From positions 1 through 45,905 of the IMG/VR virus record IMGVR_UViG_643348547_000010: a stretch of 45,905 bases of DNA; one strand, written 5' to 3'. This stretch comes from a virus (Duplodnaviria; Heunggongvirae; Uroviricota; Caudoviricetes). Positions 30,694-33,296 of this stretch are shown here, piece after piece. Position 1 is the first letter of the stretch, and each line of letters starts with the position of its first letter. The notes under the pieces were generated by a model. That model was not told the DNA's origin, did no database searches, and was given only the letters and a program-made list of their open reading frames with translations. The position numbers and the translations under genes are program-made.

Positions 30694-31014
30694 CAAATGG
30701 TTCATTCCGGTTATTAACCTGACTGGCTTGTCGTTAAATTGAACAGGTGGAGTGAGCTTTTATTTTGAGCAGTACGGCGTATGGCACATGCGCCGATAGC
30801 GGTCTGGATACGTTTAAGGGGCACCCTCCCTTGCTCGAGCAAACGAACCAGGTAGCCGGAATGTGCAAGTCGAGCGGTTTTATTCCGCGCACGGGGATTC
30901 ACCATCCCGGCGATTCGGTGTGACGCCTCGGAAGAGACGAGGGTACAACGATGAGAGCATTTATGGAGCCGCGACAAAGTGTGGCGCCTTAACAGGCTAA
31001 GTGCTCTCAGCGTT

Positions 31015-31091
31015 GTGGCATTAGCTCACTTGGACAGAGCAACCGCCTTCTAAGCGGTTGGTCGCAGGTTCGAATCCTGCATGCCACGCCA
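31015..31091 (+). tRNA. tRNA-Arg (anticodon UCU), phage-encoded
   Basis: Cloverleaf by hand: acceptor GTGGCAT/ATGCCAC, D-arm GCTC/GAGC, anticodon stem ACCGC/GCGGT with loop CTTCTAA, T-arm GCAGG-TTCGAAT-CCTGC, discriminator G, CCA; sequence differs from host argU. Confidence 0.85.
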
Positions 31092-31134
31092 GAATCACGC
31101 CTAAGGACCGTGATGCCAGAAGTTCCAGGGGCTT

Positions 31135-31176
31135 GGCGGTGATGGTTTCCCTTGAAGGACTATCACCGCCCTTTTT
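31135..31176 (+). terminator. Intrinsic terminator downstream of tRNA
   Basis: 9-bp stem GGCGGTGAT/ATCACCGCC followed by TTTTT. Confidence 0.6.
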
Positions 31177-31254
31177 ACAGCAGGACGCCATTGCGATGGC
31201 TTCATGCTGTAAACCAGTACAGCCACGGAAGGCATAACTCATTGCTTCCAGTTC

Positions 31255-31279
31255 GCCCGGTTCGCCGGGCATTTTTTTT
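31255..31279 (+). terminator. Intrinsic terminator
   Basis: GCCCGGTTCGCCGGGC followed by T8. Confidence 0.65.
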
Positions 31280-31387
31280 GGCGTGATACGTCACAATTAT
31301 GATATCGATGCAGATTACGACATACATGAAAAACATGTCATAGTATCTCCTGAGGTTAATCTCGATTCAAAAAGAGGATGATTTATA

Positions 31388-31735
31388 ATGATTAAAATCA
31401 ATAACGTACGTGGTGCTAGCGTTAGCGTCAACGGAGAAGACTTCACTGGTCATCATATTACGATTAACAATGGAAAAGTGATCGTTGATGGTGTCGAAAA
31501 AAATAGCAATCTTGACGGACAGATTAACGTAACAATTAATGGAAGCGTGGAAGGTGTTGAGATTGAAAATGGATCAGTGACTGTAAGCGGTGATGCACAT
31601 TATGTGAAAACTATGTCTGGTGATGTCCATTGTTCCAATGTATTGGGAAATGTAAACACCATGTCTGGAGATGTAATCTGCGAAACTGTTGGTGGAAACG
31701 CCAGCACAATGTCTGGAAATATTATCAAGAAATAA
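31388..31735 (+). CDS. Small repeat-containing protein (beta-strand-rich, bactofilin-like pattern); accessory gene
   Basis: 115 aa with alternating G/V/N pattern and tandem TMSGDV/TMSGNI repeats; strong RBS AAGAGGATG; own terminator. Confidence 0.6.
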   Translation: MIKINNVRGASVSVNGEDFTGHHITINNGKVIVDGVEKNSNLDGQINVTINGSVEGVEIENGSVTVSGDAHYVKTMSGDVHCSNVLGNVNTMSGDVICETVGGNASTMSGNIIKK

Positions 31736-31747
31736 TTATTTAAAAAT

Positions 31748-31779
31748 AAAGCCCGCGCATTTGGCGGGCTTTATTTTAT
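31748..31779 (+). terminator. Intrinsic terminator
   Basis: AAAGCCCGCGCATTTGGCGGGCTTT followed by T-rich run. Confidence 0.65.
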
Positions 31780-31820
31780 CCTCATCAGAGGATATCAACG
31801 ACATTATCCCCAGCAGCGGA

Positions 31821-33296
31821 TTAAGCATAGGGATCGTAATCTGTAATGGCCCTTCCCTGCTGGCTTTGCTGTCCTGGTATATTTATGCGTTTCGAGACCG
31901 GGAAAGCAAACGTCAGCAGTAGCGCATCGCCTTTACCCGGCGAACGCCCAAGCCGCTCCTTGATATCTTCCTTCGGTTCGATAACGATTTTACCGTCCAC
32001 TCGAACTTTGTACTCTGCCGCCGACAGGTCGTCCGCTGTTTCCTGGTCATCCAGCATGCCGCCCAGCCTCAGCCATGTCTTGCATGAGTTGAACATCTCC
32101 CCACGCTTGTTGAGCATCTGCGGGTCAGTAGACGCGCCACCGAACGGAACAAGTTGCCATGTGCGCCCCCAACCGTCACCGATTGACTTCAGACCAGTTC
32201 CGTAACCGAAGTCGATGAACACCGCGTCAGCCTGATACTGGTCTTCAAAGTCAGCGATACGCTTTGCCATAATCAGATCGTCAGTGGTCTTGTTGCCGGT
32301 CCACAGCACCTTACTGTGCAGCCCCTGCCGCAGGTATATCACCGCGTCATCAACACCGGAGTATGCAGGGTCAACGCCGATTATCACCGGAGCATGCGCC
32401 ACCTGCGCAGCGGTTACCACCCGTTTCATTGCCTCATCAGTAAGACCGGTAGGGATAAACTGCAATTCAGATGCATCAGGGAATATGCCGCGCACACGGA
32501 TTTTAACGAAGTCGCTGTCTTCCCCGTAGTCATCAACCCATTTCTGCAACTGCTGTTTGTTAGTGCCTTCCACCGTTCGGCTGTCAATCTGCGCAGTTTT
32601 CCAGCGGTGTTTATATTTGCGGAAACATTCGCGGAAACGTCCGGTATTACGCGTCGGGTTTCCGAACGCCACCCAGATAATCTCAGTGTCTTCGTCCGTT
32701 AGTGCACCCTCGGCAACTTCCCACACCAGATCCGCAATGTTCGACGCTTCATCGAATACCACGATGATGCGTTTGCGCTCGTTGTGTAGTCCGGCGAATG
32801 CCTCAGTGTTGTGCTCAGACCAGGGGATTGCGTCAGCTCGCCACCGCTTGTCGTGTCCAGGATCATTGCTGTACATCGCGGTAGCGGTACAGGTAAACCA
32901 GTCTTTCGTGATAGCAAGGTTCGACCACTTGATAATTTCCGGCCAGGTCTTCGTTCGTAGCTGGTTGTCGGTGTTGGCGGTCACCACGACCTTACAATCC
33001 TCGCAAGTGGACATGCCCCAGTTGATCAGCATTGAGATGAATGCGGATTTACCAATACCGTGACCAGAAGCGCGTGCCAGCATAAGCGGCTGATAGCGCG
33101 TCTCTGGATTCTGCAGGTGATCACGTATCTCTCGGAACGCATCAGCCTGCCACTGACGTGGGCCGGTAGCATGTGCCAGTTCAGTCCCCTCTTCCCCCCA
33201 CGGGAACGCATAGAGGGCATAGCCAAGCGGATCGTGAGTGAACCCTGCAATATCATCGATCAACTGCTCTTCAGGAGATAACGCTGTATCTGTCAC
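31821..33296 (-). CDS. Terminase large subunit
   Basis: 491 aa, Walker A-like ASGHGIGKS, acidic nuclease-type C-terminal half; directly downstream of small subunit. Confidence 0.85.
   Translation of the reverse strand: MTDTALSPEEQLIDDIAGFTHDPLGYALYAFPWGEEGTELAHATGPRQWQADAFREIRDHLQNPETRYQPLMLARASGHGIGKSAFISMLINWGMSTCEDCKVVVTANTDNQLRTKTWPEIIKWSNLAITKDWFTCTATAMYSNDPGHDKRWRADAIPWSEHNTEAFAGLHNERKRIIVVFDEASNIADLVWEVAEGALTDEDTEIIWVAFGNPTRNTGRFRECFRKYKHRWKTAQIDSRTVEGTNKQQLQKWVDDYGEDSDFVKIRVRGIFPDASELQFIPTGLTDEAMKRVVTAAQVAHAPVIIGVDPAYSGVDDAVIYLRQGLHSKVLWTGNKTTDDLIMAKRIADFEDQYQADAVFIDFGYGTGLKSIGDGWGRTWQLVPFGGASTDPQMLNKRGEMFNSCKTWLRLGGMLDDQETADDLSAAEYKVRVDGKIVIEPKEDIKERLGRSPGKGDALLLTFAFPVSKRINIPGQQSQQGRAITDYDPYA

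Follow-up and report, generated by a model that had tools for sequence, protein, structure and literature searches.

A horizontally acquired single-gene cassette of a Uetakevirus encodes a predicted mini beta-solenoid from a large, unnamed protein family of mobile elements

The DNA analyzed here, referred to as the window, is a stretch of 45,905 nucleotides from a Uetakevirus, i.e., an epsilon15/phiV10-like podophage, with 98.8% identity to Escherichia phage TL-2011b over the region of interest. On its plus strand, at 31388..31735, lies an open reading frame (ORF) of 115 amino acids, whose translation agrees with that given in an earlier note on this DNA. Its product is a member of PHROG 3163 and would be a soluble, mildly acidic, all-beta solenoid protein (11.9 kDa, pI 5.1, net charge -5), in which G, N, V and S are abundant; neither a signal peptide, nor a transmembrane or hydrophobic segment, nor a catalytic motif was found in the 115-residue sequence. 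TL-2011b encodes a 100% identical protein, AEW24577.1, annotated only as hypothetical. A Shine-Dalgarno sequence, AAGAGGA with a GAGG core, can be read at 31372..31378 on the same strand, 10 nt 5' of the ATG. The earlier note had described a self-contained unit with a strong ribosome-binding site. A self-contained unit is supported, with the ORF, the Shine-Dalgarno sequence and a strong hairpin terminator; the 10-nt spacing makes the ribosome-binding site good rather than ideal. No sigma-70 promoter for the ORF passes a standard scan of the plus strand. A relaxed hexamer scan returned one weak candidate at 31317..31344 (plus strand), ACGACA / 16 nt / TGtCATAGT, with an extended -10 element and 4/6 and 4/6 matches plus the TG; as a putative promoter it offers nothing beyond this match to the consensus.

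The ORF occupies a gap in a block of genes on the opposite strand. The minus-strand order is TerS, TerL, the gap, a 68-aa gene and the portal gene, and the large-terminase gene TerL (31821-33296, minus strand) is convergent with the ORF. The plus strand of the gap carries tRNA-Arg(UCU) at 31015-31091, two terminator hairpins 3' of it at 31135-31170 and 31255-31270 (both on the plus strand), and then the ORF, which these hairpins insulate from the tRNA transcript. A functional tie between the ORF and the adjacent tRNA gene was considered and discarded, as the lone Arg codon of the ORF is CGT and two terminators separate the genes. An 83-aa ORF on the minus strand (31021-31272) runs antisense across tRNA-Arg(UCU) and both of the hairpins that follow. 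It appears as a CDS in TL-2011b (AEW24578.1) and in phiV10 (PhiV10p04), two records that carry no tRNA-Arg annotation, and RefSeq annotation of E. coli prophages drops or shortens it; this ORF probably does not represent a real gene. The tRNA-terminator block (30900-31278) is ~80% conserved in Klebsiella and Salmonella epsilon15-like phages. By megablast, 64 Synechococcus phage records match positions 30900-31900 of the window at 80-90% identity, and we presume that these matches fall on the tRNA-Arg(UCU) gene.

Downstream of the ORF, two perfect 14-nt arms (31743-31756 and 31764-31777) form an intrinsic terminator at 31743..31777. The hairpin folds with -21.7 kcal/mol on the plus strand (z = -6.3) and -20.2 kcal/mol on the minus strand (z = -5.2). 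Because it folds on both strands and has U-runs on either side, the terminator is bidirectional, and common to the ORF and to the convergent TerL gene; the equivalent hairpin in the phiV10 record is annotated on the TerL strand. The ORF had been credited with a terminator of its own, and a strong one is there, but it is shared. In the prophage of E. coli 2013C-3033, a compensatory T>C / A>G pair is found in the outer stem, which supports the pairing and selection for the hairpin. The loop and inner stem (31756-31766) read GCGCATTTGGC in the window, the exact reverse complement of GCCAAATGCGC in TL-2011b and two E. coli prophages; by its sequence, this difference is an inversion of the hairpin loop, of the kind that template switching at a quasi-palindrome leaves behind. 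The terminator also lies within the minus-strand late operon, with TerL on one side and the 68-aa and portal genes on the other. Given this position of a strong bidirectional terminator, expression of the portal and head genes would depend on read-through, on antitermination or on another promoter.

The ORF sits in an accessory-gene slot, or moron cassette, at 31278..31773 (496 nt), with a conserved anchor on either side, the left one being the T-run of the second tRNA terminator and the right one TTTTATCCTCA. Aligned to phiV10, the sequence is nearly identical as far as this T-run and again from the 3' arm of the downstream terminator onward, while the sequence in between is unrelated. With a GC content of 38%, the cassette differs from the window (50%), from TerL (54%) and from the portal gene (51%). 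The slot of the window, like that of TL-2011b, measures 496 nt (GC 38%) and holds the 115-aa solenoid gene. In phiV10, O157 typing phage 9 and PH444 it measures 432-436 nt and holds a gene of the N4 Gp49/Sf6 gp66 family (PF13876), and in phiv142-3 only 83 nt are left. At the same position upstream of TerL, phage PAS61 carries, per its record annotation, a 140-aa phrog_4846 gene, although its left anchor has no match. Thus, the slot has at least three measured states among collinear relatives, plus a different gene in PAS61. The phiV10 gene (PhiV10p03) resembles the cassette gene in position, strand and the common downstream terminator flank, and the PAS61 gene in position and strand and in being a small single gene; neither has an assigned function, and both are unrelated to the cassette gene in sequence and family. 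The slot, bounded by the terminators of the tRNA on one side and of TerL on the other, is a hot-spot of recombination.

The cassette itself is found in only 10 of 5,426 complete E. coli genomes; in the two of these that were inspected, it occupies the same slot of a Uetakevirus prophage. The earlier note had taken the gene for a moron from its position and orientation. This label is well supported, because the cassette is replaced or absent in collinear sister phages, its boundaries are sharp and its GC content deviates from that of the window. We conclude that this single-gene cassette is genuine and was acquired horizontally; it is located between the tRNA-Arg(UCU) terminators and the 3' end of TerL.

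The encoded protein contains a repeat in its C-terminal part. TMSGDV is found at residues 75-80 (31610..31627) and 91-96 (31658..31675), and TMSGNI at residues 107-112 (31706..31723), all on the plus strand; that is, the repeats start at residues 75, 91 and 107, with a period of exactly 16 residues, or 48 nt. The DNA copies are 64-76% identical to one another, and although a repeat-finding analysis of the DNA recovers them as a repeat family, Tandem Repeats Finder reported nothing on the ORF. Given this divergence, the repeat is an old feature at the protein level rather than a recent duplication of DNA. Among 89 homologues with 40-67% identity to the query, each of the three motifs is at least 90% conserved, if not invariant, which places them beyond chance; the earlier description of three tandem, in-frame, coding repeats of the TMSGDV type is confirmed. 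The consensus of the 89 members reads ...V.IDGR.F.G.S..I...KVIVDGVEQ.G.LVG...VTV.GDVE......G.V.V.G..G.VKTMSGDV.CGDV.GSV.TMSGDVTCG.IGGSVSTMSGDI..R., and the alignment shows little or no variation at the Gly, Ser and Asp of each motif and at a stacked Cys. Distant members from phages have a relaxed motif, S-T-T-N-G-D-I-x-C in KVP40 and T-S-V-N-C-N-N in a Bacillus phage. Because the motif degenerates in this way, its conservation is no proof of a binding face. The ladder of TMSGD and Cys residues may be purely structural, contributing turn and core residues to a solenoid, and the pattern would suit such residues at least as well as a ligand-binding site.

A structural model of the protein was obtained with AlphaFold2 (AF2) from the 89-member alignment. 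The model is confident, with a pLDDT of 88.8 and a pTM of 0.76, and consists of 14 strands with no helix and no disordered tail; strand extends from residue 2 to residue 114, and no segment falls below a pLDDT of 70. A single chain is therefore predicted to form a short beta-solenoid, with about seven rungs of 16 residues each and the conserved T-M-S-G-D-V-x-C ladder on the last three. The beta-helical fold proposed in the earlier note was thus right at the level of fold class. Structural comparison with the model gave values of 7.4 for the Ca-dependent antifreeze protein 3p4g, 7.2 for the Bacteroidales "putative pectinase" 3lyc, 6.4 for the MinC C-terminal domain 1hf2, 5.6 for the bactofilin 6ria and 5.1 for the Toastrack structure 4qrk. 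A Foldseek search of the model against the PDB returned nothing significant (best E = 0.62). For the beta-solenoid of the MinC C-terminal domain and FapA (PF03961), ~60 residues align with the cassette protein, with no significant match in sequence. In BFVD, the model matches family members of other phages, with TM values of 0.8-0.9; weaker matches are to giant-virus proteins and to one viral protein named "Bactofilin" (E = 1e-6, TM 0.55).

The protein matches PHROG 3163 over its full length (E = 7.2e-37, 127 bits, residues 2-115 on profile positions 6-120 of 121), a group labeled "unknown function". No family was assigned to it by Pfam, NCBIfam or PADLOC; the sole Pfam line, Pilin at E = 0.9, is noise. 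The exact 115-aa protein is present on 448 contigs. A word-indexed search retrieved 1,096 homologues, and a profile search 4,499 clusters at 50% identity with E <= 1e-3, or 1,714 with E <= 1e-10. Nearly all members of PHROG 3163 are stand-alone proteins of 105-150 residues, and the extra part of the longer homologues contains no Pfam domain. The KVP40.0139-like proteins of this group, among them AEW24577.1 of TL-2011b, GAP32_102 and fHeYen801_133, are of the same family as the cassette protein and share with it both the stand-alone architecture of ~115 residues and three C-terminal rungs of the type T-x-[SN]-G-[DN]-[IV]. A literature search yielded nothing on the PHROG 3163 / KVP40.0139-like family or on its function. 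PHROG 3163 is a very large, unnamed family, and it is confined to mobile elements.

The earlier note had suggested a beta-helical or bactofilin-like fold; as a family assignment, bactofilin is not borne out by the comparisons. Neither the 115-aa protein, at E <= 10, nor the family consensus matches the Pfam Bactofilin model (PF04519, DUF583; gathering score, 27.9 bits). The best PF04519 score anywhere, 15.7 bits (E = 0.019), belongs to one Bacillus-phage homologue and is sub-threshold, and Bactofilin is outside the 25 Pfam families most often matched by the 89 members. For comparison, a BacA-like sequence that served as bait only retrieved 1,950 proteins, with PF04519 on all 120 of the matches listed. 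An earlier bait, a 45-aa Thermus fragment, had retrieved one truncated protein. When the 89-member family profile was compared using hhalign with 30 PF04519-annotated proteins, a set that is alphaproteobacterial and of low diversity, the probability was 0.72% (E = 0.079). Searches of PDB sequences with the family profile and with single sequences returned only noise (NudC, L6 and bactofilin); a Thermus bactofilin was the top PDB hit of phmmer, with E = 0.29. By Foldseek, the model aligns with the bactofilin 6ria with E = 2.4 and a TM of 0.21. Bactofilins have a beta-helical core with disordered N- and C-terminal tails, and their rung is longer than 16 residues. The cassette protein, as modeled, differs on both counts, as it has a 16-residue rung and is not flanked by disordered tails. 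Judged by these comparisons, the PHROG 3163 protein is not a bactofilin.

Another family compared is Toastrack (DUF4097/DUF2154/DUF2807), a domain that includes LiaG, YvlB, the LiaF C-terminal domain and PspC fusions. Like PHROG 3163 proteins as modeled, it is a single-stranded beta-helix, predicted to be intracellular, with an "SGD[IV]" rung motif. Among Pfam families, DUF4097 is the one touched most often by the 89 members, 24 of which show hits (best E = 0.0016), all of them sub-threshold; one longer member reaches 19.3 bits, against the Toastrack (PF13349) gathering score of 22.9 bits, and another bears the JGI name "DUF4097 and DUF4098 domain-containing protein YvlB". Neither the query nor the family consensus has a DUF4097 hit, however, and the Toastrack model is 247 positions long whereas the cassette protein has 115 residues and no match at the Pfam cut-off. 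The other beta-solenoid families to which the earlier note had pointed yielded, for Toastrack/DUF4097, a similarity that stays sub-threshold. Toastrack has been described as an intracellular protein-docking platform, and the gene contexts that define it include PspC, LiaI-LiaF-TM and two-component systems (PMC11237479). In the loci that we examined, PspC, LiaI-LiaF-TM, PspA and two-component genes are absent both as fusions and as neighbors, and every context is a phage, a prophage or a conjugative element. PHROG 3163 may be distantly related to Toastrack; because nothing reaches the Toastrack threshold and none of its contexts is found, we treat PHROG 3163 as a distinct, unnamed family of mini-solenoids.

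Homologues were matched by tblastn in 181 phage records, the majority of which are large virulent phages. These include the T4-like Vibrio and Aeromonas phages KVP40, nt-1, phiAS5 and Aeh1; Bastille-like Bacillus phages; Klebsiella, Erwinia and Proteus phages of ~145 kb; Acinetobacter phages of ~97 kb; and the jumbo phages GAP32, BF, fHe-Yen9-04 and XbC2. In KVP40 and in the unrelated Vequintavirinae Erwinia phage Hena1, the homologue lies between RNA ligase 2 (rnlB) and rIIA/rIIB, among small hypothetical genes, and in Bestia, Emiliahah and Deep Blue it is found within arrays of such genes. In prophages, the homologue is usually in the early-left operon, on the same strand as RecT/Erf/RdgC and int. 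In A. baumannii prophages, it comes next after the gene for the S24 repressor, with which it shares the strand, and is followed by RecT; in a Shewanella prophage, it has methylase or other small genes on one side and xis/int on the other. A DnaJ-domain gene precedes it, and int follows, in a Gilvimarinus prophage. In one metagenomic contig, it has Erf and Ead/Ea22 before it and int after it, and in another it comes directly after RdgC. In Fusobacterium necrophorum, it belongs to a conjugative element, flanked by a DNA methyltransferase gene and by T4SS genes. The cassette gene is a lone unit in the packaging module, whereas other members of PHROG 3163 are in early gene arrays; in an Enterobacter podophage, the homologue lies between a portal-adjacent 280-aa gene and the capsid gene. 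A conserved partner gene was sought and discounted, the upstream gene encoding a protein with one transmembrane segment in Acinetobacter, one with two in Shewanella, and unrelated soluble proteins in KVP40, Emiliahah and fHe-Yen8-01. Since no partner is conserved across contexts, the protein most likely acts alone.

Two homologues carry annotations that refer to the virion. Bacillus phage Emiliahah gp233 is annotated as "structural protein", and fHeYen801_133 of Yersinia phage fHe-Yen8-01 (42% identity), next to a tail fiber, as "particle associated protein". In fHe-Yen8-01 (1-2839), the homologue is located just 3' of a gene for a particle-associated, 2,146-aa "ADP-ribosyltransferase toxin" and of two further particle-associated proteins, a neighborhood that is possibly a cluster of ejected effector proteins.

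Because the family is common in phages that do not lysogenize, is located in early regions and has no partner, a protein that binds a host component during infection is the most likely reading. We propose, tentatively and at a confidence that stops somewhat short of calling it probable, that the cassette protein is a non-enzymatic, cytoplasmic binding module for host takeover or counter-defense during infection. It would be produced at an early stage of lytic growth, or might be carried in the virion; inside the infected cell it would act stoichiometrically, as a rigid protein-binding surface, and thereby neutralize or redirect a conserved bacterial component. Its role would be in host takeover or counter-defense, and not that of a lysogenic-conversion factor or a bactofilin-type cytoskeleton. 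Pfam, NCBIfam and PADLOC gave no signature of an enzyme, toxin or defense system. Time and again, single genes that are small and fast-moving, in early or accessory regions, have proved to be counter-defense or host-takeover factors. A counterpoint to expression early in the lytic cycle is that the gene in the window is a lone unit of the packaging/portal module, outside the early operon and encoded on the opposite strand. The possibility of a DNA mimic was also considered, and is disfavored by the net charge of -5, the pI of 5.1 and a median net charge of -3 across the family.

The earlier note had read the gene as expressed in the lysogen, in which case a promoter of its own would be active in the prophage and the product would benefit the lysogen, e.g., through superinfection exclusion or host fitness. 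Because the copy in the window is insulated and on the opposite strand, such a role is possible for this copy: it is an isolated unit facing against the late operon, with two terminators upstream and a strong one downstream, and its AT-rich 5' region contains the weak extended -10 candidate. The cassette also differs between sister prophages, and the arrangement in A. baumannii, directly 3' of the S24 repressor gene and on its strand, resembles that of rexAB beside cI in lambda. However, the standard scan gives no promoter, PADLOC gives no defense hits, and the family occurs mostly in strictly virulent phages, for which there is no lysogenic state; in other prophages, the homologue is co-oriented with early recombination and int genes. 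The prevalence of the family in virulent phages and early-left prophage operons, and its presence in a conjugative element, count against a lysogen-specific role. On the sequence evidence, expression of the cassette gene in the lysogen thus appears somewhat disfavored, and we consider the explanation as a whole unlikely. Rather unlikely, too, is a minor virion-associated or ejected protein, packaged and delivered with the DNA or decorating the particle. This idea draws on the Emiliahah label and on that of fHeYen801_133, which is found amid other particle-associated proteins, by the giant ADP-ribosyltransferase toxin and the tail fiber; on the location of the gene here, between the terminase and portal genes; and on that of the homologue in the Enterobacter podophage. 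These two labels are known from record annotation alone, though, and the gene is on the strand opposite the late operon, while in most phages the homologue belongs to arrays of small hypothetical genes, outside annotated structural modules. Moreover, sister Uetakeviruses lack the gene or have unrelated genes in the slot, and so it cannot encode an essential structural component.

Two further explanations take their cue from the fold, and to both we assign a low probability. A polymer of the bactofilin type, in which end-to-end stacking of solenoids would yield filaments without need of a nucleotide, and these would reorganize the infected cell, would be compatible with a small beta-solenoid whose strands, in the model, run to the last residues with no separate C-terminal element. 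Bactofilin is also the leading phmmer hit in the PDB, one Bacillus-phage homologue touches the Pfam model, and BFVD contains the viral protein of that name. Yet every one of the sequence matches is sub-threshold, the hhalign probability against the 30 bactofilins is 0.7%, the Foldseek alignment to 6ria is not significant, the 16-residue rung is shorter than that of bactofilins, and the tails typical of bactofilins are missing from the model; we regard such a polymer as very improbable. Just as improbable is a free-standing copy of a Toastrack-type beta-helix that would dock, as a decoy, onto envelope-stress machinery of the PspC/LiaF type in the host and modulate it. The weak DUF4097 hits, including that of the longer member, the YvlB name and the docking function ascribed to Toastrack (PMC11237479) all point in this direction, as do the small transmembrane proteins encoded directly 5' of the homologue in two prophages. 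That upstream partner is not conserved, however; the query and the consensus have no DUF4097 hit, the family profile misses 4qrk and 4opw among the PDB sequences, and PspC, LiaF and two-component genes are found in none of nine contexts.

What was already known of this gene is its deposition as a hypothetical protein, its place in a PHROGs family without a function, and the fold class. What is new is the recognition of a distinct and very widespread family of mini-solenoids, the rejection of the bactofilin label, and an argument from genomic context for a role in the lytic phase. A more far-reaching proposal, which we offer as doubtful, is that PHROG 3163 constitutes a new, widespread class of beta-solenoid anti-host effectors from phages, conjugative elements and possibly giant viruses. 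Delivered early or in the virion, these proteins would use the flat T-x-S/G-D ladder to bind and block a bacterial component conserved from Firmicutes to Proteobacteria, e.g., an immune sensor, or a division or envelope-stress protein.

The gene is ordinary in itself, but it provides a handle on an uncharacterized family of about 4,500 clusters (50% identity) for which there is no Pfam model, and which recurs in virulent phages, early prophage operons, a conjugative element and, apparently, giant viruses. The slot in Uetakeviruses offers natural isogenic comparisons in a tractable E. coli host, with this gene, with another gene, or nearly empty, and PHROG 3163 is a candidate for functional screens. 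A rigid mini beta-solenoid in a counter-defense or host-takeover role would represent a structural solution of a new kind.
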